A stretch of 64,000 nt of DNA from Escherichia coli (lineage in GTDB: Bacteria; Pseudomonadota; Gammaproteobacteria; Enterobacterales; Enterobacteriaceae), in assembly GCF_048403405.1 (NCBI RefSeq), contig NZ_CP183129.1. The stretch is one strand, 5' to 3'. The notes beneath the pieces were generated by a model. The model saw only the letters and a program-made list of their open reading frames with translations. It was not told where the DNA came from and made no database searches. The first letter of the stretch is position 1. Each line of letters starts with the position of its first letter. Shown here piece after piece: positions 2,165 through 27,182 of the stretch. The position numbers and the translations under genes are program-made.

Positions 2165-2437
2165 ATGGACAATAACACCATTTCTCTACAGGAGTTGCTC
2201 GACAGCATTTCCAGGCTTCGGGAAGACGTGAATACCCTTACCGTCGCCTTCTCATATCTGGCATTCTCAATTCCAAGGGAACAGATGCAATCAACGCTGG
2301 CATCAATCCAGTTTGAATCATGCAATCCCAAATGGTCTCAGGAACAACAAGACTCTTTCAGGCGGCTTGCTGTATTACTGGATGAAAAATATGCTGGTAA
2401 AATTACCATTTCGGCGGACTCTTCAGAGAACCCGTAA
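2165..2437 (+). CDS. hypothetical 90-aa protein encoded antisense to the late operon
   Basis: ATG at 2165 with GAGGA Shine-Dalgarno 6 nt upstream; no TM or signal peptide; 3' end overlaps the convergent 114-aa gene by 35 bp. Confidence 0.45.
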   Translation: MDNNTISLQELLDSISRLREDVNTLTVAFSYLAFSIPREQMQSTLASIQFESCNPKWSQEQQDSFRRLAVLLDEKYAGKITISADSSENP

Positions 2438-2747
2438 TTATTCCCGGTAGTTTTCCTCTGTAGGTTATCAACACATCCTGCGCCTCTAAAATTACGGGGC
2501 GCTTTTCCGGCGACTGCTCATCCCCTTCACATAACCCGGCAGCAACATCCAGGAAGACCTGTCTGATGCTCCTTCTGGCTGCTGCCTCATAAAACTCCAG
2601 CGCGGCACCTTCAACACGGTCCAGCGAGATGTCCAGGTCAAAAATTTCACCGTCAAAGCGTTTTTTGTCCCGTAACGCTAAAGTTACCGTAACTTTATTC
2701 TCAAAATTGCGGATCCCTTTCACAATCAGTTTATAGTTTTGAGTCAT
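2403..2747 (-). CDS. hypothetical 114-aa protein between holin and endolysin
   Basis: ATG 4 nt after the holin stop with GGAGAG Shine-Dalgarno; no recognisable domain. Confidence 0.55.
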   Translation of the reverse strand: MTQNYKLIVKGIRNFENKVTVTLALRDKKRFDGEIFDLDISLDRVEGAALEFYEAAARRSIRQVFLDVAAGLCEGDEQSPEKRPVILEAQDVLITYRGKLPGIITGSLKSPPKW

Positions 2748-2751
2748 TGAA

Positions 2752-2967
2752 TTACTCTCCCCGTGCAGCCTTACGACGGTCCTCTCTGATTTTGAAATAC
2801 AGGTTAGTCAGATATGTCAGCAGCCCAAACAGCAGACTCCCCAGCACGCCTATTGCCGCCCACTGAGACGGGGAAACCCTGTCCAGCAACTGCAGGAACC
2901 AGTAGCCCGTTCCCACCGCTGACGTGGTGTATGACACACCTGTTGTGATTTTTTCCATCTGGTACAT
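2752..2967 (-). CDS. class II pinholin (phage 21 S21-like), dual-start motif
   Basis: [10 protein letters not shown]... two closely spaced Met starts; two TM segments; C-terminus ...[22 protein letters not shown] matches S21 as recalled. Confidence 0.8.
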
Positions 2968-3117
2968 ACCCCGTCTCCCGTTATCCGGAAGCTGACAACA
3001 ATAAAAAAAGCCACCAGTTAAGTACTGATGGCTCTGATAACTCATGCAGGCATCTCAGACGACCCACTGACACTACCGGTGAGTTTAACGATACCTTCCA
3101 TTTGGCTGGCTCACTTT

Positions 3118-4971
3118 TTATGATGATGCCGGTGCATTTATCTCCAGCACCAGACTTTCTATCTCAACGCCATACGCTGCATTTTTGGTAATATCCGTCA
3201 GCGTCAGCGCATTCAGCCCCAGTGTCAGACTGTCTTTTATGACCTGGAATGCCGGGCCAGCCACTCCATTCAGTTTCGGAGTAACCGTGGCACTGCCGGC
3301 GGTGAACACCAGCTCCAGCGTCTGCCAGTCGTTACTGTAATTCCCGAACTCGCCCAACTTTGTGTTTCCTGCTTTCTTGTGATGCATCAGATTCAGTTTG
3401 CCGTCTGTGGTCTGGGTGAAGAACGACATCAGGAACGGGTTACCAGTCCCGGTCATCGCCACGACGTCAGGTAACGCTACATCGGTATACAGATAAATTC
3501 CCAGACCGAACTGATTGTTGGTCAGTGCGCCTGACAGTCGAAACTTACAGCTCAGTCTGCCACCCCGTGTCAGCAGGGAGACTGCGTCATCCACCGGGCG
3601 CGTCAGGGACCAGGCTTTATTGCTCTGCTTGGTGATCTTAAATACACCATCTGACAACTGAATTCCGCCATTCTTAATGCTCCAGCCCTGCGCAGCAGCG
3701 TCTCCGGCTGTCGGCAACAGGGAGATTGTGCGTATGGATGCATCTTCAGACGGCCCCGATGGCGTGTCGCCGCCGGGCGAGAGTTTGATTTCCGGTGCCT
3801 TACCACTAATGAAGGCTAAGGTGCGACCGGCTACGTTCAGAATAGCAGTTGCCATACGATCGGGAATAATGCCACGACGCGCCCATGAGCTGAAATGCGT
3901 CGGGCGATTTGATGATACCCAGTTTTTGTTCGTTCGGGATGCCGAACCGTAATAACCAGACCCGACAATATCAGGATCTTCTGACGGGTTGTTTGTCGGT
4001 GTATTAACTCCGCTACCATCGGTCATAAAGGGAACAAAATAAATCTGCTGGGATTCTTTACCTTTATATGCACCATATACCACTTCATATTGCGTACCGT
4101 GTTCTTGTTTCCACGCGTATGTCGTGTCGCCACAAATCCAGGGGACTGATGCCGGACTTCCACCGTGACACTGCGCTGCCAGCCCGGCAAGGTCAGCACG
4201 GAACTGCTGTACCATTGCAAGAAATGCTGCTGGCTGCTGGGCGTAACTGGCATTCGTCATATCGAATTCCCCCTGCATCCAGCATATCGCCAGCAAAACG
4301 TTTTTCGGGTTTTTCTGCAATGCTGCCTTCGTGCGGAAAAGCAGATCCTGATATAACGGCTTACCCACTCCCCAGCGAGCCGAATCCTGACTGGCTCCCG
4401 TGGACTCGCTGAATGTCCCCTCCGTGCCCTGGGTGAATGCCGAACCACCACGACAGCATGGTACCAGCAGGATCCCCGCATTATTAGGGATATACGGAAG
4501 CAGTTTTTTGGCAATATGTAAGCCCTGTCCGACACAGCCGTACTGCCCTTTGCTCAGGTCAGCCCGGGGATGGTTAATCGTACTCATATCCTGAACATCA
4601 TGCAGACAATGGTCAGCAGGAATGATGTCGTTAAATACGCATACTTCACCACCGGGAGTCACTGTGTTACGACGGGCCAGTTGCTTAATGCGCGGATGGG
4701 GCGCATCGTATGAATCCGGAAGCGGAAGCCCTTCACCGTAAGCCATGGCATTGGATTGCCCGGCCAGTACGATGACGTAGTACCACTCCGGCTCAGTTGC
4801 ACCACTGACGACCACATCACCTTCTGCTGCAATCGCCTGCATCAGGGTATAAGGGGTTATGGCCACCGGACTACCAAACGGCTGCCAGCCCTCCTTCAGT
4901 TTTTGTGTCAGTCGTTTCGCAAGGTCTGACGGCGATGCCGCCCTGACCACGTCATAGTGTTTAAATGCCAT
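3118..4971 (-). CDS. nanS: prophage sialate O-acetylesterase (NanS-p-like, SGNH hydrolase)
   Basis: 617-aa protein with GQSN motif (VLAGQSNAMAYG) near N-terminus and long C-terminal beta-rich region; sits between the tRNA cluster and holin as in Stx phages. Confidence 0.75.
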   Translation of the reverse strand: MAFKHYDVVRAASPSDLAKRLTQKLKEGWQPFGSPVAITPYTLMQAIAAEGDVVVSGATEPEWYYVIVLAGQSNAMAYGEGLPLPDSYDAPHPRIKQLARRNTVTPGGEVCVFNDIIPADHCLHDVQDMSTINHPRADLSKGQYGCVGQGLHIAKKLLPYIPNNAGILLVPCCRGGSAFTQGTEGTFSESTGASQDSARWGVGKPLYQDLLFRTKAALQKNPKNVLLAICWMQGEFDMTNASYAQQPAAFLAMVQQFRADLAGLAAQCHGGSPASVPWICGDTTYAWKQEHGTQYEVVYGAYKGKESQQIYFVPFMTDGSGVNTPTNNPSEDPDIVGSGYYGSASRTNKNWVSSNRPTHFSSWARRGIIPDRMATAILNVAGRTLAFISGKAPEIKLSPGGDTPSGPSEDASIRTISLLPTAGDAAAQGWSIKNGGIQLSDGVFKITKQSNKAWSLTRPVDDAVSLLTRGGRLSCKFRLSGALTNNQFGLGIYLYTDVALPDVVAMTGTGNPFLMSFFTQTTDGKLNLMHHKKAGNTKLGEFGNYSNDWQTLELVFTAGSATVTPKLNGVAGPAFQVIKDSLTLGLNALTLTDITKNAAYGVEIESLVLEINAPASS

Positions 4972-5945: not shown

Positions 5946-6022
5946 GTGGCGCGTTGTACTGGATTCGAACCAGTGACCGATTGCTTAGAAGGCAATTGCT
6001 CTGTCCGGCTGAGCTAACAACG
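5946..6022 (-). tRNA. argO: tRNA-Arg (anticodon UCU), phage argO-like
   Basis: Reverse complement folds as canonical cloverleaf: acceptor GCGTTGT/ACAACGC, anticodon loop CTTCTAA, T-loop TTCGAAT, 3' CCA. Confidence 0.85.
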
Positions 6023-6035
6023 CAGGATACAGATA

Positions 6036-6113
6036 ATGGACCGCCTTCGGGGACCCGAACTCCGCGCAACCAGCTTCGAAGGCTGGCGCTCTTTCCTGAT
6101 GAGCTAATGGCGG
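6036..6113 (-). tRNA. argN: tRNA-Arg-like (anticodon UCG inferred), phage argN-like, possibly degenerate
   Basis: Cloverleaf with anticodon stem CCAGC/GCTGG and loop CTTCGAA, but one acceptor mismatch, one T-stem mismatch and atypical T-loop TTCGGGT. Confidence 0.6.
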
Positions 6114-6120
6114 TATGTGA

Positions 6121-6196
6121 TGGTGGCCCTTGCTGGATTTGAACCAGCGACCTGGCGATTATGAGTCGCTCGCTCTCACCACTGAGCTAAAGGGCC
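6121..6196 (-). tRNA. ileZ: tRNA-Ile2-like (anticodon CAU), phage ileZ-like
   Basis: Reverse complement GGCCCTTTAGCTCAGTGGTGAGAGCG...CTCATAA...TTCAAATCCAGCAAGGGCCACCA closely resembles E. coli ileX as recalled. Confidence 0.85.
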
Positions 6197-6682: not shown

Positions 6683-7426
6683 CTAATCTGACGTCACACG
6701 CACCATTATACTTACTAAAGAAAAGTCATCATCAGGTCCGGCTCTCTCTATACGACGCAAAATACCATTAGAAAACTTCTGACTATTACTCATAGTATTT
6801 GATGTAAATCTGGGGCGTTTTTCCCAAACGTTATGAACTCCATCAGACATGATACACAGATGATACAACCCGTTAATACCAGGCAAATCTTTCCACGGGA
6901 TAAAATCACAGTCGTATTCCATATCAACATTTGAGGCTATGGCAGTCGTTAAGATATTTTTTCCCGGTTTATTCTTCAAATCTCTGGGTTTAAAAATATT
7001 CTGATCAATTAACATCTGATGTCTGGTATCGTCCTTCGTCAATTGATATGCTTTCTTTTCTCCAATGCAATACAAGCGACAATCACCAATATGACCAATA
7101 ATAATTCCGCTATCACAAACATAACAAAAGGTAAGTGTAGTAGCAGCTTTATCGAACTCATCATTAACTTCAGCTAACGACATAACTTTTCGCTTAACTT
7201 CAGCAAATACATTCGGAACTGCATCAAAAGATAAACTTGTCAATGCTGAAAGTTCAGCGATTGCCATGGATGAAGCATAACTGGCACCAGAGTATGAACC
7301 TACACCATCAGCTACGGCAAATAAGATGCCGTCTCCTACAATTTTTGGAGGAAGCAATGAATCTTCGTTGACCCTACCTGGTTCTTTTGGATACGAGAAT
7401 GATGAAGTCGCTATCAGCTGAATCAT
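6683..7426 (-). CDS. PP2C-family (PPM) Ser/Thr protein phosphatase
   Basis: Motifs NEDS, FAVADGVGS, GHIGDCR, MSDGV in PP2C order; ATG with AAGGAG Shine-Dalgarno; 103 bp downstream of the kinase gene. Confidence 0.8.
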   Translation of the reverse strand: MIQLIATSSFSYPKEPGRVNEDSLLPPKIVGDGILFAVADGVGSYSGASYASSMAIAELSALTSLSFDAVPNVFAEVKRKVMSLAEVNDEFDKAATTLTFCYVCDSGIIIGHIGDCRLYCIGEKKAYQLTKDDTRHQMLIDQNIFKPRDLKNKPGKNILTTAIASNVDMEYDCDFIPWKDLPGINGLYHLCIMSDGVHNVWEKRPRFTSNTMSNSQKFSNGILRRIERAGPDDDFSLVSIMVRVTSD

Positions 7427-7529
7427 GACTCACTCCTTAAAAAAGAATGCGCAAAATCAAACGCCACATCATCTATTGTCTGATATCTATCATCTTTATC
7501 CATCCTTGTGCACTTAGCTATGATAGGCT

Positions 7530-8186
7530 TTATTTTTTATCATCTAAATTTAAGTCTTCAATTAACCGTCCCACAGCATAAACATCAGTCTTAACTGAAT
7601 ACTCTGCATTATATAAAATCTCGGGAGCCATATATCTTGTACTTCCCATACGGGTACCGATCTCGGTCAATTTAGTGGTATCCCCTTCGGGATTCGTATC
7701 TTTTACCAGACCAAAATCAGACACCTTGTATGTTCCGTCGCTAAATCGCAAAACATTAAAGGGTTTTATATCTCTGTGTAAATAGCCTTTGGCATGGATG
7801 TAAGCTACACCATCTAATACCATTTTCACTATTGAAATTTTTTGATCTGTTGTAAGAAGGTTGTTCGTTATTTCGTGCTCAAGATCACATTCTGCTTTAT
7901 CCATAATGAACCATGGATTCTCAACAAACAAATCGCACAAATAAATAGGAACAATATTGCTATGTACGCAATGTGATTGATACACAACCTCCCTTTTAAA
8001 ACGCCTTCTAAACTGCTCTATTTGCGCCAAAAGCTCTGGTTTTTCGGGTGCTAAAACCTTTCTAGCATAATCCCCGCATTCACCTTTATTGAGGTTGTAA
8101 ACCTTAACGTGTTCAACAAAGCCAAATGCCCCTCTTCCAATCAACTGAATTCGTTTTATAAAGTAATTACCGTGCTGTTCTTCCAT
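7530..8186 (-). CDS. Hanks-type (eukaryotic-like) Ser/Thr protein kinase
   Basis: Gly-rich loop GRGAFGFV, catalytic loop HRDIKPFN, DFG (VSDFGLV) and APE (YMAPEIL) motifs; start taken at internal ATG 8186 because the ORF's TTG start lies inside the upstream terminator hairpin. Confidence 0.8.
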   Translation of the reverse strand: MEEQHGNYFIKRIQLIGRGAFGFVEHVKVYNLNKGECGDYARKVLAPEKPELLAQIEQFRRRFKREVVYQSHCVHSNIVPIYLCDLFVENPWFIMDKAECDLEHEITNNLLTTDQKISIVKMVLDGVAYIHAKGYLHRDIKPFNVLRFSDGTYKVSDFGLVKDTNPEGDTTKLTEIGTRMGSTRYMAPEILYNAEYSVKTDVYAVGRLIEDLNLDDKK

Positions 8187-11101: not shown

Positions 11102-12208
11102 TCAAACAATCTGGAAAATATTTCTTGGATTTGTAATAGGTCTGTTGATGGAGAACAACTCACGAATTAAATCTTGGCTCAAGCCAGTTTTCATAAGAAT
11201 TCTTAGCCAGGTTGCATCATCCAGCATTTCAATCGCCTCGGCCAGCATGCCGGGTTCTTCAGGGCGCAAAAGTTCATCACCAGGTTCAACTCTCGTATAC
11301 CCTCTGGAATTAAGATGCATATAGCCAGTTCTTGCCTGTTCCTGGGTCAATAAGCCTAATGCGCTGGCTCGATAAATACACATTTTAAGGCTGATTTTCC
11401 ATCTAAGTTTAAATTCAACCAGAGCATTCCAGTCGAATTGCTTACCTCGTATTCGTGGAAATTCTTTAATGAAAGATAACCTGGGAACTAATAAGGCGCT
11501 CGAAAAGTGATCGGCTTGTGATTCCGTAAGTTTATCACCTGTCGTTATGCCCTCATGCATTACTAAATGCCCTAATTCATGACCTAAATCAGAGCGAAAT
11601 CTACATATGCTTTTTTTAACATTGTTCCTGATGATAACAGGCCTGTTATTGTGAACAGTAAAAGCATCAACACGATCATCGACTCCCGTAACATGCGCAA
11701 CGATTACCCCTAAACTCTCCGCCAATTTAACCATTGATGATATAGGGCCAAGACCTAAATTCCAGGCACGGCGACAATCTTCTGCCACTCGCTCAATATC
11801 ATTCGGAGTAAGTAATTCAGCCCCTGGGTGCTCCGGTATGTTAACGTCAGGAAATTCGATTTCACCTTCAACAGCAGAAATTATAATATTAAGAATCTCA
11901 GCCCTGGCCAATACACTATTAGTCAGCGTTTGAGTCCTGGACTTCTTACTCCGAAAATGGCAGACATCACTTTCCAGAGCGTATTTTCGTTCAGTAAAAA
12001 GAAAACTGGACTTAATCATAAGCGCTGAAGATATTAACTCAAGACATTGCTCCGATGGCCTGCACCCCTTCTCCAGTTTGCTAACGAATTGCTTTGTCTT
12101 GCCAATTTTTTCGGCTAACTCTTCACAAGAAAGCCCAACAGCCATTCTCGCTAGTTTGAGCTTATCACCCCGATACTCAGTGAAGTTATTCACCTGATGT
12201 TCCATCAC
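11102..12208 (-). CDS. HTH (XRE-family) + ImmA/IrrE-type M78 zinc metallopeptidase fusion protein
   Basis: N-terminal helix-turn-helix (LKLARMAVGLSCEELAEKIGKTKQFVSKLEKG); C-terminal HExxH (HELGHLVMHE); start overlaps the upstream gene by 23 bp. Confidence 0.8.
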   Translation of the reverse strand: MMEHQVNNFTEYRGDKLKLARMAVGLSCEELAEKIGKTKQFVSKLEKGCRPSEQCLELISSALMIKSSFLFTERKYALESDVCHFRSKKSRTQTLTNSVLARAEILNIIISAVEGEIEFPDVNIPEHPGAELLTPNDIERVAEDCRRAWNLGLGPISSMVKLAESLGVIVAHVTGVDDRVDAFTVHNNRPVIIRNNVKKSICRFRSDLGHELGHLVMHEGITTGDKLTESQADHFSSALLVPRLSFIKEFPRIRGKQFDWNALVEFKLRWKISLKMCIYRASALGLLTQEQARTGYMHLNSRGYTRVEPGDELLRPEEPGMLAEAIEMLDDATWLRILMKTGLSQDLIRELFSINRPITNPRNIFQIV

Positions 12209-12836
12209 TGCTCACATCCAAATCTTTATCCTTCGTACGCCGACGAAGAGGCACCTTATTAATCTCCGCTTCGTCAGGGAGTGTGTTATAATCAAGAGGC
12301 ATAAGCGGCATCGATGCTGTAGATTGATGAGAAACTATACTAATCTGAGCACCATAAGTATTAAATCCAACAAGAGCTACCTCCCAACGAGGCAGTGTGG
12401 ACTCTAATTCACCATCGCCCTCTTCGGATAAAAAAGGCTCAGCTATGACTCGCCATGTAATATCTTGCTCAGCCTCAACATCACCAAACAATGAGAGCTG
12501 CTCATACTCTACTTTATTTCGACGCAGACGATGTTTCTTTTTGGGGTTATTAATGCAATCTTTGGTAAATTGTAGCGGAACTTTATTTAAAGCAACTACA
12601 TAGTCCAACCCCTTGGAAATCATCTCAAGGCCAGGAATTGCATCTTCATTTTGAATAAGATGATTTCTGACCCAATCATAAGCCCTTACACCTTCAGACC
12701 AGTTGCTGTCTAATGCGTGCTTATGATAGTACAGCTGCTCAAGTACGTTAGCGATCTCCGCCAACAAGTGGCGAACATAGTTTTCAGCAAGATAAGGTTG
12801 AAATTCCCAACAAGGAGCTAACTGATTTTCATTCAT
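12186..12836 (-). CDS. hypothetical 216-aa protein with no recognisable domain, first gene of the cassette
   Basis: ATG at 12836; basic patch NPKKKHRLRRNK, acidic C-terminus; translationally coupled to the HTH-peptidase gene. Confidence 0.6.
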   Translation of the reverse strand: MNENQLAPCWEFQPYLAENYVRHLLAEIANVLEQLYYHKHALDSNWSEGVRAYDWVRNHLIQNEDAIPGLEMISKGLDYVVALNKVPLQFTKDCINNPKKKHRLRRNKVEYEQLSLFGDVEAEQDITWRVIAEPFLSEEGDGELESTLPRWEVALVGFNTYGAQISIVSHQSTASMPLMPLDYNTLPDEAEINKVPLRRRTKDKDLDVSSDGTSGE

Positions 12837-13001: not shown

Positions 13002-13157
13002 TTACTCCTCAGGTTCGTAAGCTGTGAAGACAGCGACCTCCGTCTGGCCGGTTCGGATTCGTACCTCGCAGAGGTCTTTCCTCGTTACCAGTGCCGTCAC
13101 AATGACGGTTAAACAGATGACGATCAGGGCGATTAACATCGCCTTTTGCTGCTTCAT
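13002..13157 (-). CDS. hokD: Hok/Gef-family type I toxin (HokD/RelF-like), with overlapping mok-like leader ORF to 13214
   Basis: MKQQKAMLIALIVICLTVIVTALVTRKDLCEVRIRTGQTEVAVFTAYEPEE matches HokD as recalled. Confidence 0.85.
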   Translation of the reverse strand: MKQQKAMLIALIVICLTVIVTALVTRKDLCEVRIRTGQTEVAVFTAYEPEE

Positions 13158-13394
13158 AGCCTGCTTCCCCTTGCCTTTCGGCACGTAAGAGGCTAACCTA
13201 CATTTGTGAGACATAGATTGGGCCTCAGATTAATGTTAAGCGTCTTGCAGGACGCGAAATGTTAACTGGGGCTTTTCTCTATCTGCCTTTCAGTGTTCAT
13301 GCCTGAGACAGATAGCCTCAAGCACCCGCAGCCATTCTACTTAACTCACGTCACCTCGCCAATATGAAATCAATCAGAAAGGTGATCCATAAAA

Positions 13395-14081
13395 TCACTC
13401 CTTCTCTTCTTTTCCGTAGTGGAGTTGGCCAATTTTGATAAGAGGGCGTCCCTGAGATTTGCGGTGTAGATTGGTATCGCGCAGAGAATACACACAGCCA
13501 CAATATTCCTGCTGATAGAATTTTTCGCGCTTGCTGATTTCAATCATACGGGACGAGCCGCCCTGCTTGCGCCAGTTATAATCCCAGTACACCATACCCG
13601 GATAATGCGCAACAGCTCGCCGCCCACACTCGTTAACCTGCTGCATATTTTTCCAGCGTGAAATGCCCAGTGAACTGCTGATCACACTGAAACCATTTTC
13701 AGCAGCGTACAACGCTGTCCGCTCAAAACGCATGTCAAAACACATGGTACAACGGATCCCCCTCTCAGGCTCCCATTCCATTCCTTTGGCACGTTCAAAC
13801 CAGTTGTCGGTGTCGTAATCAGCATCGATAAACGGCACGCCGTGTTGTTCAGCAAAGCGAATATTTTCATCCTTACGAATTAAATACTCTTTCTGAGGAT
13901 GAATGTTCGGGTTGTAGAAAAAGATGGTGTAGTCGATTCCCGAGGCCTGAAGCGCCTCCATCACTTCACCGGAACATGGAGCACAGCAAGAGTGCAGTAG
14001 TAGTTTGTTTGCCCCGTTTGGGAGCTCCAATTTAGGCCGTTTGAAATCAGCAATAGTCATAAATATTTTTATTGGGGTCAT
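13395..14081 (-). CDS. QueH-like (DUF208) epoxyqueuosine reductase homologue
   Basis: HSCCAPCS motif plus additional conserved Cys; 228 aa from ATG 14081; the ORF-track start at 14123 is a TTG inside the IS150 inverted repeat and is rejected. Confidence 0.7.
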
Positions 14082-14135
14082 GAAAATAGCACAGAGTGTA
14101 GCATCAGAGTGTACTGACCCCAAAAAGTTGGACAG

Positions 14136-14987
14136 TTAAACACGAGGCATATAGGTCTGATTCCGATATTCAATTGGAGTCAGACCTTTTAATTTCAGGC
14201 TAATTCTTCTGCTGTTGTAGTATTCAATATATTCCGTAACAGCATCCTTCAGTTCGCTTATATTACTGAACTCATCAAGATAAAAACACTCCGACTTTAA
14301 GGTTCCAAAGAAACACTCCACCACAGCATTATCCAGACAATTGCCTTTTCTGGACATGCTTTGTTTAATACCATGTTCTTTAAGGATATTTTGATATCTT
14401 CTCATACGATACTGCCATCCCTGGTCAGAGTGCAGAACAGGATGCTCGTGAGGATTAAGCTTTTTGAATGCCTGATCGAGCATATTCTCAACCATGTTCA
14501 TCACTGGTCTTTCCGAAAGGCTGTAAGAAATAACTTCGTTGTTGAAGAGATCTATTACTGGAGACAAATACAGCTTGCGCCCATTGACTGCAAATTCAGT
14601 AACATCGGTAACCCACTTCTCGTTTGGCCGCGTAGCCTTGAAATCTCTTTGGAGAACATTAGGGGCGGTTTGCCCTACCTCTCCTCTGTAAGAGCGGTAT
14701 CGCTTGACCTTAATCGCTGCTTTAAGTGAGAGGGTTCCCATCAGGCGCTGAACAGCTTTATGGTTAATCTGTTTCCCTTCTCGATGAAGAGACAGCGTTA
14801 CCCTACGGTATCCGTATCGGCCTCTATTCTCGTGATAAATCTCACTAATACGCTTTTTAACGTCCGCATACTTGTCAGGCTTGCTGAGAGCCTTTAGATG
14901 ATAATAAAACGTACTGCGCGGTATCTCCGCAGCCCTGAGAAGCTCATCAAGAGGATAAAACTGCCTTAGCTCGTTGAGTACTTTCAC
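14136..14987 (-). CDS. insK: IS150 transposase OrfB (integrase/DDE domain)
   Basis: 283 aa; matches InsK as recalled; overlaps OrfA in the -1 frame. Confidence 0.9.
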
Positions 14988-15505
14988 TTTTTCGTGGGAT
15001 GAGCTAAGGCTTTCAGCTTTTTTAGATACATAAGCCGCGTTTCAAGAAATCGAACTTGCCTTTCAAGATCCTCAATGCGTCGGTCTTTTGACAGCTCCAA
15101 TGCTGATGCCGCTTTTTCTGGATCAACTGATATTGCAATGTTTCTTTTGGTGCCAATCTTGAGCGCGCGTAAACCAGCTTCTCCGCGCTCTTCATAGACC
15201 TTCAGCCACCTGGCTACAGAACCACTACCAGCAAGCATAAAGTGAGCAGCAGCCTGATTAAGGGACATGTGCTGCTCGATCACAGCTTTCACGACCTTAA
15301 TACGCAACTCTGGATCAGCACTAACGCCTTTAGGTTTGGGAATTAAACCTTTTTCTCCATGTTTTTCATAGAGGGCAACCCATGTCCTGACCTGGGTTCG
15401 GGGGACACCAAAACGTGCCGAGATGATCCTGTAACCATCATCAGTTGTGAAGTAGTGATTCACGACTTCAAGGCGCTTTTCAAAAGGGTATTTTGGCTTT
15501 GACAT
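14984..15505 (-). CDS. insJ: IS150 transposase OrfA (HTH)
   Basis: 173 aa; MSKPKYPFEKRLEVVNHYF... matches InsJ as recalled. Confidence 0.9.
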   Translation of the reverse strand: MSKPKYPFEKRLEVVNHYFTTDDGYRIISARFGVPRTQVRTWVALYEKHGEKGLIPKPKGVSADPELRIKVVKAVIEQHMSLNQAAAHFMLAGSGSVARWLKVYEERGEAGLRALKIGTKRNIAISVDPEKAASALELSKDRRIEDLERQVRFLETRLMYLKKLKALAHPTKK

Positions 15506-15680
15506 ATTAGGGGCTATTCCATTTCATCGTCCAACAAAATGGGTGCAGTACAGAGCAGGGCTATCGGGAATATATGTCTAAATCTGGTAATATCTGGTTT
15601 TGACGCAAAGCGGACAACCACGCTGGCTCTACCCTGCGCCATGAAAATGTCAATTCACATCTGAACTAATGCTCTTTAAT

Positions 15681-16121
15681 CTAGTAACGTCTAAAATACC
15701 TAACATTTCCTTGATAAAATGCCAGTACACGCTGCATAGCTTCGCTCTTCCGGCACTCGCGACAGATTATATTCAGGCGCCTGTCGTAGCGGCGTATTTC
15801 GCCGTCTGGTAACGACCAGATAAGGTCCGGATCAACCACTGCAGGTTTCTTCACCTTTGCCCTTGAGAGTTTTTTGCGAGCATTTTGCCAGTCCTTACGC
15901 GCCTGTTCAGACGGGAATAACCCGTAACCAGAGTTGTATACATCGCCACTGGCAACCAGCTCTCTGGCGAGAACACTCATCAGATATCTTGTCGCACCTG
16001 TCTTGGCTTCCAGTTGCCGCAACGTCTCGCGACCGCTCAGACGTACAAGTTCAACAACCTGCCCTTTAATTTTTTCCCGCTCTTCTTGTGTAAATACTTT
16101 TGCCATAAGCGCCTCCGGCAA
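15681..16121 (-). CDS. hypothetical prophage protein (146 aa)
   Basis: ORF abutting the 262-aa gene; Cys pair ICRECRK; no confident family. Confidence 0.45.
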   Translation of the reverse strand: MPEALMAKVFTQEEREKIKGQVVELVRLSGRETLRQLEAKTGATRYLMSVLARELVASGDVYNSGYGLFPSEQARKDWQNARKKLSRAKVKKPAVVDPDLIWSLPDGEIRRYDRRLNIICRECRKSEAMQRVLAFYQGNVRYFRRY

Positions 16122-26172: not shown

Positions 26173-26826
26173 TTAAAAACGATATCCTGCCGAGAACATA
26201 AACACCCACGGGTCAAGGCGTACATTGTCGCTATAACTGCCTTTAGCCAGTTTACGACCATCAGATTTATACTTCGCGGTGGTATCGATATCCATGTACC
26301 AGACTGACATGTTAACCAACCAGTCACGGTTAATCAGATAATCAACCCCCACCTGCCCGGCAGCTCCCCAGGAATCTTTCAGACTGAGATCGGAAAGCCC
26401 CGCCTCTTTGCCATGATCGTTAAATCCATTATCAAAGAAGGTGGTGTAGTTAATACCTGCCCCAACGTAAGGACGGAATTTGCTGCTGGCATCACCAAAA
26501 TACCACTGCGCCATCAGTGTTGGCGGCAGATGATGAACGGTTGCAATATCGCCGGTCGCCCGGGTGCCGATTTTATGGCGGAACGGCGTCGCTGCCAGCA
26601 ATTCCACACCAATGTTATCGGTCGCCATATAAGTAAACGTCAGGCCCAGTTGCGTGTTATTGGTCACGCTGAATCCACCCAGACTTCCTAACGTACCACC
26701 AGCACCTTCTGTTGGACGTACGGTTGCAGACCCTGCACGCATAAAAAATTCGCCTGCTTCATGCGCATAGGCACTGCCAGAGAGAAGAGTTGTTACTGCC
26801 AAAGCCGCCACTGTTAACTTTTTCAT
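26173..26826 (-). CDS. ompW: outer membrane protein OmpW (variant C-terminal loop)
   Basis: Signal peptide MKKLTVAALAVTTLLSGSAYA and body match OmpW; residues ~183-200 differ from the K-12 sequence as recalled. Confidence 0.9.
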   Translation of the reverse strand: MKKLTVAALAVTTLLSGSAYAHEAGEFFMRAGSATVRPTEGAGGTLGSLGGFSVTNNTQLGLTFTYMATDNIGVELLAATPFRHKIGTRATGDIATVHHLPPTLMAQWYFGDASSKFRPYVGAGINYTTFFDNGFNDHGKEAGLSDLSLKDSWGAAGQVGVDYLINRDWLVNMSVWYMDIDTTAKYKSDGRKLAKGSYSDNVRLDPWVFMFSAGYRF

Positions 26827-27182
26827 ATCCGCTCCGTCGTTATGGTTATAAAAACGTGACGAATATACCTACATTGGAGTAACAAATGATCCTACATAGG
26901 TCACATTACATATGATAATTCACCATTTATTGATCTGGATTAATTTAGAAGTTGCATTGAGAATCCTGGTTAATGTGATTTAAATCAATTTTTAAATATT
27001 TTCGCTACGCAAATATTAACTCGACCGCCACTTGCCGCGATTTGCCCACGTCTGAAGGCCAGCAATTACCTCCGCTTTACAAAGATATGCTTTTCCATAC
27101 AAGACCTGATGCTGCCACCCGAGGCTTAACCAGGGTACAATTGCCCGCTAATTAACACCTGCATAAAACTCAAGGAGAGTGC

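Follow-up and report, generated by a model that had tools for sequence, protein, structure and literature searches.

An insertion sequence stands between a queH-like gene of an Escherichia coli prophage and the DNA that naturally precedes it, and the locus raises the question of how the element came to lie there and what it does to the expression of the gene behind it. The window considered here is a stretch of 64,000 nucleotides of contig NZ_CP183129.1 (assembly GCF_048403405.1), and positions are given in its numbering.

The element and the gene beside it

An earlier note on this DNA had described a complete 1443-bp IS150 flanked by a 3-bp GAG target duplication. Alignment to a reference copy agrees in full: window positions 14110-15552 (minus strand) show 0 differences to the IS150 of K-12 MG1655 (NC_000913.3 3720633-3722075). 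The element is IS150, of the IS150 group of the IS3 family, and matching genomes annotate it as 'IS3-like element IS150 family transposase'. It is an ordinary, already known element in a strain-specific insertion. Its 3' end, the right inverted repeat (IRR, 14110-14140, TGTACTGACCCCAAAAAGTTGG), adjoins queH, and its 5' end, the left inverted repeat (IRL), occupies 15522-15552; the two 31-nt arms are imperfect, 71% complementary, and follow the pattern TGTACTG...CAGTACA. The GAG duplication can be read from the sequence at 14107-14109 on the side of queH and at 15553-15555 on the side of the DUF977 gene, where the empty site of relatives has a single GAG. A 3-bp target duplication is typical of IS150 (PMC11708052).

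The element contains two overlapping reading frames on the minus strand. The first, insA (orfA, 15505-14984, 173 aa, taken from the ORF list and equal to K-12 insJ by sequence identity), has Pfam matches to HTH_28 and related helix-turn-helix families. The second, insB (orfB, 14987-14136, 283 aa), lies in the -1 frame and supplies the catalytic rve/DDE part of the transposase; it matches the NCBIfam model NF033516 for IS3 family transposases (E=1.4e-104; 350 bits, cut-off 160), and Pfam finds the rve domain in a protein identical to it. An A AAA AAG slippery site (A6G) is present at 15017-15023 on the minus strand, position 530 of the element corresponding to 15023; according to Vogele et al. 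(1991), as cited in PMC10379815, a -1 frameshift at this site fuses InsA and InsB in IS150. Because its sequence is that of an active element and its duplication is fresh, the copy is taken to be potentially active. The K-12 copy (insJ/insK, in the hokA-sokA locus) shares the 1443-bp sequence, the inverted repeats, the frames and the A6G site, but it lies at another locus, where the triplets on its two sides, GTT and TAC, do not match; in the window copy the GAG duplication is perfect, and relatives preserve an intact empty site.

The insertion resides in a Qin/Rac-like lambdoid prophage adjoining ompW. PGAP annotation of an identical prophage that lacks the IS gives a one-strand gene string consisting of ydaS (cro-like), ydaT, an O-like gene, P, DUF1627, DUF977, queH, hokD, further genes, DUF968, rusA and Q, with IS150 placed between DUF977 and queH in the window. 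Q is the antiterminator gene, and the element is therefore situated inside the string that runs from the cro-like gene to Q and is co-directional with it. From this place within the ydaS-to-Q string it follows that IS150 physically splits the early-right operon, and the gene order of the IS-free prophage thus supports what the earlier note had proposed. The upstream neighbour in the operon is the DUF977 (Ren-like) gene at 15681-16106 (minus strand; PGAP of the IS-free prophage, Pfam PF06163). The native spacer between DUF977 and queH measures 174 bp and is identical in 10 different prophage contexts; 125 of these 174 bp are now 1.45 kb away from queH, including the displaced remainder of the spacer at 15563-15680 (minus strand), which contains two weak promoter-like sites.

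The queH gene (13395-14060, minus strand, 221 aa, PGAP WP_000150294.1) had been taken to be intact, and rightly so: its DNA is identical to that of genomes annotated with WP_000150294.1 and its product gives a full-length Pfam match. This match (PF02677, QueH, E=1.2e-65, model positions 1-174 of 175), together with a match to PDB 7lc5, the QueH of T. maritima (E=7.8e-22), in which the CCAPx, CxxC and CGC cysteine motifs are aligned, identifies the product as a predicted epoxyqueuosine reductase of the B12-independent QueH/DUF208 family; an NCBIfam profile search returned no QueH match for it. A dN/dS of about 0.05 across lineages indicates constraint on the protein and says nothing of the reaction. 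Very many prophages of E. coli carry queH. E. coli already has a B12-dependent enzyme, QueG.

The distance between the element and the gene depends on the start codon. A value of 28 bp, as given earlier, is correct for an in-frame ATG at 14081, which reads ATT in the diverged lineage referred to below as AR436-type. The ATG at 14060, on the other hand, is the PGAP start, is shared by the three diverged lineages that were compared and lies 49 bp from the IS, so that 49 bp rather than 28 bp is more likely to be the distance to the real start of queH. The start coordinate of the earlier note, 14082, is the first base of the 28-bp spacer and not the end of the IS. The ORF track has instead a spurious 242-aa ORF that begins inside the IS, and the ORF list bears out that its start at 14123 is a TTG within the right inverted repeat. 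As one more strain-specific copy of a well-known element in a prophage spacer, the insertion itself is of little weight; the main use of the analysis is for annotation, namely the IS boundaries, the true queH start and the spurious 242-aa ORF.

Empty sites in related prophages

When the IS and one GAG are taken out, the resulting 700-nt empty site is found in many E. coli genomes, at 100% and in one piece. Over a longer range, window positions 1-25,000 minus the IS and one GAG (23,554 bp) show 0 differences to strain MSB1_7C. Comparison with IS-free relatives, which had been suggested as a check, thus shows a true insertion into a prophage that is identical over 23,554 bp. The occupied junction was found in 0 of 5,426 complete E. 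coli genomes. Exact scans for the 19-nt junction in species-representative genomes and metagenome contigs returned AR436-type scars and three chance matches only, and look-ups of two junction-spanning ORFs gave no match, the second query being a weak one that began with L and not M. Given flanks identical to those of IS-free prophages and a junction absent from the genomes and metagenome contigs scanned, the insertion is recent and private to the source strain.

Possible consequences for queH transcription

The insertion had been expected to silence or rewire queH. Rewiring is plausible, on the strength of consensus matches and analogy; silencing is not supported as it was stated, the IS being co-directional and free of a sense-strand terminator and a -10-like block being kept. 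The explanation that we regard as probable, taken as a whole, is that of a recent IS150 at a preferred site, with transcription reading through it and with low, altered expression of queH. Elements of the IS3 family transpose by copy-out, paste-in, and here an intact IS150 transposed recently into the 174-bp spacer. Its transposase genes run in the same direction as queH, and its 3' end (IRR) abuts the gene. A scan of the IS for terminators found no terminator-like site on the sense strand; a hairpin followed by a T-run in the right end (14153-14187, plus strand) is terminator-like only for transcription opposing the transposase direction, and on the sense strand it has no U-run after it. Since the sense strand carries no intrinsic terminator, phage early transcription probably reads through the element, with some polar effect on the genes that separate it from Q.

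There are two candidate sources for the transcription of queH in the occupied allele, and low, altered expression would be more likely than silencing. The first would be transcripts that leave the IS at its 3' end. The second would be a hybrid promoter that combines TTGGGG of the IS (14118-14123, minus strand, within IRR), a 17-bp spacer and the conserved TGcTACACT. The latter, an extended -10-like consensus match at 14095-14103 (minus strand), goes with a conserved 14-nt block, CTCTGATGCTACAC (14096-14109), which stays on the side of queH and does not differ between the window, the AR436-type lineage and phage HannyBb; in the AR436-type lineage the hexamer itself is TACACA, the final T missing. 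In a rough promoter matrix the occupied allele reaches the best score, 10.1, versus 7.5 for the native combination TTCCCG-18-TACACT. Promoter and terminator consensus scans gave no more sites than were found in shuffled sequence, and in the part of the native spacer that lies upstream of the insertion point there are promoter-like sites that are just as good. If the native queH promoter is among these, it is now cut off by the IS.

Both sources have counterparts among known insertions. Among new IS150 insertions of the E. coli long-term evolution experiment, 12 of 55 gave modest new downstream transcription from the 3' end, and the other 43 showed no significant change (PMC11101190). These cases resemble the window in element and in geometry, with the 3' end of the IS facing the downstream DNA, but they are documented by RNA-seq and concern non-genic DNA, whereas the window has a conserved gene with a possible -10 of its own, read from sequence alone. 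Likewise, the hybrid promoters reviewed in PMC12095673, in which the end of an IS supplies the -35 and the flanking DNA the -10, are similar to the window arrangement TTGGGG-17-TACACT preceded by TG; the window promoter is a sequence match, and the unmutated 150-bp IS150 ends of that work had no detectable activity.

The same reporter study, in which the IS150 ends were picked for this lack of promoter activity (PMC12095673), lends some weight to a polar block. Here queH would be cut off from a native promoter in the displaced 125 bp and from pR read-through, and early-right transcription would be blocked as well, so that queH, hokD and Q would be under-expressed and the prophage crippled. This outcome would fit with the 1.45 kb of foreign DNA that now separate the replication genes from Q, and with the promoter-like sites that the native spacer has farther upstream, TTGTCC-17-GATATT (8.2 in the rough matrix and partly conserved in phage HannyBb) and TTGACA-16-TAGAGC. 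We nevertheless consider it unlikely. The IS is co-directional, translated and devoid of a terminator-like site on its sense strand, and the conserved -10-like block is still joined to queH. Moreover, the AR436-type lineage has lost all native upstream DNA at this point, yet queH is intact in its 43 genomes, and the low dN/dS of queH across lineages likewise argues against such a block.

A further possibility, which we find doubtful, is that the IS is a neutral passenger, with the queH promoter contained in the retained 49 bp or with queH served by read-through upon induction only, and hence with no measurable change. The retention and conservation of TGcTACACT are in line with this, given that extended -10 promoters can function without a -35, and so is the lack of a sense-strand terminator; furthermore, an insertion that is private and recent has not yet been tested by selection. 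Against neutrality, the -35 region and any element upstream of it have been replaced, insertions of 1.45 kb usually bring some polarity, and in transcripts that read through the element, UUGGGGUCA of IRR can base-pair with UGACCCCAA of the leader. Low and altered expression of queH from read-through or from the hybrid promoter is the reading that we retain.

Target preference and a second hit at the same nucleotide

The empty site reads AGCATC-A-GAG-C-AGGGCT (17-bp site AGCATCAGAGCAGGGCT). Its left half, AGCATC-A-GAG (14100-14109, plus strand), fits the pattern RGC[C/A][C/T]N-N-(duplication) that lies beside the IRR of other copies, and its right half, C-AGGGCT (15556-15562, plus strand), mirrors AGCCCT-G and is a half-site in the top 0.009% of all positions. 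In 20 of 22 distinct IS150 flanks, GC is found at -9/-8 from the tip of IRR, with a one-base shift at sites with a 4-bp duplication. With the window left out of its construction, a target-site matrix places the real site 1st of 62,528 positions (two-sided score), and a matrix from 10 non-hok sites only ranks it 2nd. Judged by these scores, the landing point of IS150 is not random: no other position of the window fits so well a target motif that was derived here from 16 other insertion sites. In all, the motif comes from only about 22 sites, many of them paralogous hok/sok loci. The stronger half-site of the window is on the IRL side, whereas nearly all other IS150 copies have the motif on the IRR side.

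Many of the sampled IS150 copies are located in hok/sok loci, at GGCCTCACTT or GGCCTCGGTT. At the hokB/ydcA locus, insertions in two strains are 1 bp apart, and at hokA the element is present in both orientations. Insertion-sequence hot spots at hok/sok loci have been described (Durrant et al., preprint, 10.1101/527788); the window insertion differs from these in that it lies outside the module, upstream of queH, with sok (13152-13327, the only family found in an Rfam search) about 0.8 kb downstream. A parallel in target structure is IS186, for which the palindromic target GGGG(N6/N7)CCCC is known (PMC5009759). It has in common with IS150 a short GC-rich target, roughly symmetric about the duplication, and hence recurrent hits at the same sites, but it belongs to the IS4 family and has another motif, while that of IS150, RGCCYC-N-NNN-N-GRGGCY, is usually one-sided and comes from about 22 sites. 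In the literature on IS150 target-site preference we found no description of a target motif, which does not prove that none exists. If confirmed, the motif would explain the repeated hits in hok/sok loci and would help to foresee where insertions cluster in production strains and evolution experiments.

The site upstream of queH has a second history in the AR436-type lineage. This diverged queH prophage lineage carries a 39-bp scar of an IS150 end at the identical nucleotide and in the same orientation, its junction reading ...CATCAGAG|TGTACTGCCCCAAAAAGTTGGCAG. The scar is present in 43 genomes and 5 metagenome contigs, and homology to the empty type stops exactly at the junction. In the 680 bp next to it there is neither an IRL partner nor further homology to IS150, and no parent of the scar turned up when species-representative genomes were scanned for an exact 24-nt match; by its sequence the scar is a solo 39-bp IS150 end. 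With the best motif match and a scar at the identical nucleotide, the spot upstream of queH looks like a hot spot for IS150.

A bolder proposal can be built on this, namely that IS150, far from inserting almost at random, recognises the short, GC-rich and partly palindromic target RGCCYC-N-(3-bp duplication)-N-GRGGCY, that the queH spot has been hit at least twice independently, and that the better -35 which the IS end, in the orientation of both hits, adds to the conserved extended -10 makes queH a constitutive lysogenic-conversion gene which would provide the host with B12-independent queuosine. As a whole we regard it as speculative and improbable. Should these side results be confirmed, the IS, scar and empty alleles would form a natural series with which to test the expression of queH and its role for the lysogen.

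In place of a hot spot, the window IS and the AR436-type scar could derive from one ancient insertion, as position and orientation are identical and the scar is ~10% off IS150, a distance close to the 12% by which the flanks diverge. A single event is nonetheless very improbable. For 23.5 kb the flanks in the window agree at 100% with prophages whose site is empty, and the IS in the window does not differ from that of K-12, whereas the queH of the AR436-type lineage stands at a dS of 0.43. In addition, the independent target model predicts the exact nucleotide, and IS150 has hit other places repeatedly, as at hokB/ydcA and hokA. Least credible of all is an artefact in which the assembler misplaced a repeat and no IS exists at the locus: the junction is indeed missing from every other genome and contig searched, but an assembly error would not yield exact IS ends, a perfect 3-bp duplication, flanks continuous with the empty site to the base and a site that fits the IS150 target motif.

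Targeting directed by inverted repeats, as in IS911, was also considered for the choice of site. The queH leader holds an exact 9-mer of IRR (14072-14080), a post-hoc match with a chance expectation of roughly 3%. The 9-mer is degraded in the other two lineages, and the idea was dropped in favour of the target motif.

The IS150 element and its prophage host

The element at 14110-15552 (1443 bp, all genes on the minus strand) is a canonical IS150, and the insertion is for this reason an ordinary finding. Its outer sequence reads TGTACTGACCCC at the start and GGGTGCAGTACA at the end, the two ends forming imperfect inverted repeats of 31 nt, and over its full length the element is identical to the copy annotated as IS150 in E. 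coli K-12 MG1655. insA (15505-14984, minus strand, 173 aa) is overlapped by insB (14987-14136, minus strand, 283 aa), an A AAA AAG slippery site lies within the element at 15023 on the minus strand, and InsB matches the NCBIfam IS3-family transposase model with E=1.4e-104. The target-site duplication GAG is present on both sides (14107-14109 and 15553-15555). The earlier note was thus right to describe a complete 1443-bp element with a 3-bp duplication. It is the only IS150 copy in the window; near-identical copies, annotated as IS150-family transposase, occur in about half of 5,426 complete E. coli genomes.

The gene order around the insertion was taken from the annotation of an identical IS-free prophage, whose coordinates equal those of the window below 14,109 and become window coordinates above it when 1,446 is added. 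According to this annotation, the host element is a Qin/Rac-like lambdoid prophage that carries on one strand the cro-like ydaS, ydaT, an O-like DnaT-domain protein, P, DUF1627 and DUF977, followed by queH, hokD, two more genes, DUF968, rusA and the Q antiterminator gene. IS150 is located between DUF977 and queH, and the gene order bears out the claim that it splits the early-right operon. The sok antitoxin RNA was found at 13152-13327 (Rfam).

For the empty site, 700 nt of joined flanks were used as a query, with IS150 and one GAG deleted. The reconstructed site is a 100% single-piece match in many genomes, including O104:H4 and ST131 strains, where the region is annotated as 'DUF977 family protein' next to 'epoxyqueuosine reductase QueH'. 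A 25-kb window query matched MSB1_7C and others over 23,554 bp, exactly 1,446 bp less, and direct comparison with the window minus IS150 and one GAG gave no difference over these 23,554 bp. The occupied left junction was found in none of the 5,426 complete E. coli genomes, exact scans of metagenome contigs and species-representative genomes did not find the occupied junction, and two junction-spanning ORFs returned no matches. The insertion is true, recent and private to the strain.

In its chromosomal part (adhE, nar genes) the window shares 100% identity with strains such as MS 69-1, where ompW has no prophage beside it. Identity to MS 69-1 starts again at 26303, within ompW, so that bases 1 to about 26,200 are prophage; the prophage adjoins the 3' end of ompW (about 26,180-26,830). 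Elsewhere in the prophage, adjacent genes for a PP2C-type protein phosphatase and a Ser/Thr protein kinase (6683-8186, minus strand) have the Q antiterminator gene on one side and the prophage tRNA genes Arg, Arg and Ile (5947-6196) on the other, as annotated in the identical prophage. A 368-aa protein that combines an N-terminal helix-turn-helix with an ImmA/IrrE-like HExxH region is inserted between hokD and DUF968 (11102-12836, minus strand). It overlaps a 216-aa protein of unknown function and is missing from the prophage as found in O104:H4.

The queH gene and its start codon

The ORF downstream of IS150 matches the full Pfam QueH model (E=1.2e-65) and the solved T. maritima QueH structure 7lc5 (E=7.8e-22); position 13 of the T. 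maritima enzyme, Asp (CCAPD), is aligned with Cys in the window protein (CCAPC). PGAP places the gene at 13395-14060, starting at ATG 14060 (221 aa, WP_000150294.1). All three lineages under comparison (the window type, the diverged AR436-type and phage HannyBb) conserve this ATG and the residues following it, whereas the in-frame ATG 14081, taken as the start in the earlier note, is ATT in the AR436-type lineage. The reported distance of 28 bp is thus correct for ATG 14081, a non-conserved alternative, and IS150 probably lies 49 bp from the actual start. The ORF-track start at 14123 is, as had been stated, a TTG within the right inverted repeat (IRR, the IS 3' end on the queH side), opening a 242-aa ORF.

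The exact 221-aa protein is extremely common in E. coli prophages, the assembly collection listing it in about 25,000 blocks. Across ten contexts that otherwise form a mosaic, queH is always placed 174 bp downstream of DUF977, and these spacers are identical to the reconstructed window spacer. In an isolated 45-kb E. coli phage, HannyBb, the region 2241-3166 (PP925841.1) holds queH at 96.8% amino-acid identity together with about 100 bp of the same upstream spacer; the upstream neighbour is a different one, a 68-aa fragment with a DNA methyltransferase annotation. Part of the upstream region therefore moves along with queH. Its dN/dS of about 0.05 in all lineage comparisons indicates strong constraint. 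The B12-dependent QueG is already present in E. coli, and no study of a prophage queH copy was found in the literature searched.

Expected effect on transcription

The earlier interpretation, that the insertion likely silences or rewires the cargo gene and splits the operon, is supported in part; it did not consider the orientation of IS150 relative to queH. The transposase genes point in the same direction as queH and the rest of the operon, with the 3' end of the IS directly next to queH. The sole terminator-like site in the region (14153-14187) is on the opposite strand and faces transcription entering IS150 backwards. An outward-facing promoter at the IS150 3' end was reported from the long-term evolution experiment, where 12 of 55 IS150 insertions gave modest new downstream transcription (PMC11101190); another study picked 150-bp IS150 ends for their undetectable promoter activity (PMC12095673).

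Physical separation of queH from its upstream DNA is real, as had been noted, the native 125 bp being displaced. A 14-nt block, CTCTGATGCTACAC, directly adjoins the insertion point towards queH; it is identical in three diverged lineages and includes TGcTACACT, a consensus match to an extended -10-like element. Promoters were scored with a rough matrix whose hits are consensus matches only. The native candidate TTCCCG-18-TACACT scored 7.5, and the occupied allele offers TTGGGG (from IRR)-17-TACACT with 10.1, in the top 0.01% of background. A further native candidate, TTGTCC-17-GATATT (8.2), matters because it falls within the displaced 125 bp; a second, weak promoter-like site in the displaced spacer is TTGACA-16-TAGAGC. 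In a standard promoter scan, sites were no more numerous than in shuffled sequence. Rewiring of queH to a low, IS-influenced level seems slightly likelier than either silencing or the absence of any effect. To reach Q, early phage transcripts would now have to pass through 1.45 kb of DNA that is translated and co-directional; a degree of polarity is likely, and nothing points to a complete block.

Several details of the junction deserve mention. The insB stop codon TAA (14136-14138) is in the queH frame and no further stop follows through 14060-14135, InsB and QueH being separated by a single stop codon, which is probably a coincidence. The queH leader at 14072-14080 (plus strand), TTGGGGTCA, is the exact reverse complement of nine bases of the IS150 right end (14115-14123, plus strand). 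In a read-through RNA, leader and IRR bases could pair (161-nt fold z-score -4.1, the IS's own hairpin included); the nine-base match is weaker in the other two queH lineages. The IS tip and the duplication (CAGAG/TGTA, 14105-14113) recreate the native CAGAGTGTA (14093-14101) 12 bp off, yielding a second TACACT hexamer on the gene strand at the junction.

Probable recurrent insertion and a proposed IS150 target motif

A junction search surfaced the AR436-type queH lineage, which has 88% nucleotide identity and occurs in 43 complete genomes as well as 5 metagenome contigs; its junction reads ...GTAGCATCAGAG joined to TGTACTGCCCCAAAAAGTTGGCAGTTAAACGAGAGGC. It carries a solo IS150-type right-end scar of 39 bp (E. 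coli AR436, NZ_CP029111.1, 4149-4187) at the position corresponding to 14109/14110 of the window and oriented like the IS150 there, with 89.7% identity to the IS150 right end (E=1e-8). Homology to the empty type ends exactly at the scar junction; upstream of it, all native DNA is replaced by unrelated sequence including a small ORF, and 680 bp beyond the scar hold neither further IS150-like sequence nor a left-end partner. The queH gene is intact. It follows that an IS150-family element formerly sat at the same nucleotide and orientation and was then mostly lost with the native upstream DNA. The two insertions are best read as independent events, because the window has flanks identical to the empty type and an IS identical to the K-12 copy, while queH of the scarred lineage shows a dS of 0.43.

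Other IS150 copies, 9 of them on viral contigs, and 20 places in genome assemblies being covered, supplied flanks for 22 distinct sites, the window excluded. GC occupies positions -9/-8 from the IRR tip in 20 of the 22, displaced by one base at three sites with a known or assumed 4-bp duplication; one of the remaining sites has the motif on the side of the left inverted repeat (IRL, which faces DUF977 in the window) and one has none. The consensus beside IRR is RGC[C/A][C/T]N, one base, then the duplication, as in AGCCCC-T-ATA, AGCCCT-G-AAA, GGCCTC-A-CTT and AGCCTG-C-TTC (loci L025-L053, holding other IS150 copies). The window has AGCATC-A-GAG on the IRR side (14100-14109) and a mirrored AGCCCT-G on the IRL side (15556-15562), the empty site being the near-palindrome AGCATC-A-GAG-C-AGGGCT. 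With a 16-site matrix that leaves the window out and scores both sides, the real insertion point ranks first among 62,528 positions of the IS-free window, and second with a matrix from the 10 non-hok/sok sites.

What the analysis adds is this evidence for an IS150 target motif and for recurrent insertion at a hot spot upstream of a prophage queH that is itself widespread. Among IS3-family elements, IS150 has been described as exceptional because it shows an insertion preference (PMC10379815). The literature searched, which did not extend to the original IS150 papers, contained no account of the motif, so that it may already be known. The hok/sok loci, listed as an insertion hot spot (preprint 10.1101/527788), are sites of repeated independent IS150 insertions. 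At hokB/ydcA, two strains carry insertions 1 bp apart with 3-bp and 4-bp duplications (L038 versus L041). At glyS-hokA, IS150 occurs in opposite orientations (L001/L035 versus L040/L046), and the K-12 copy at the hokA locus is without a matching duplication.
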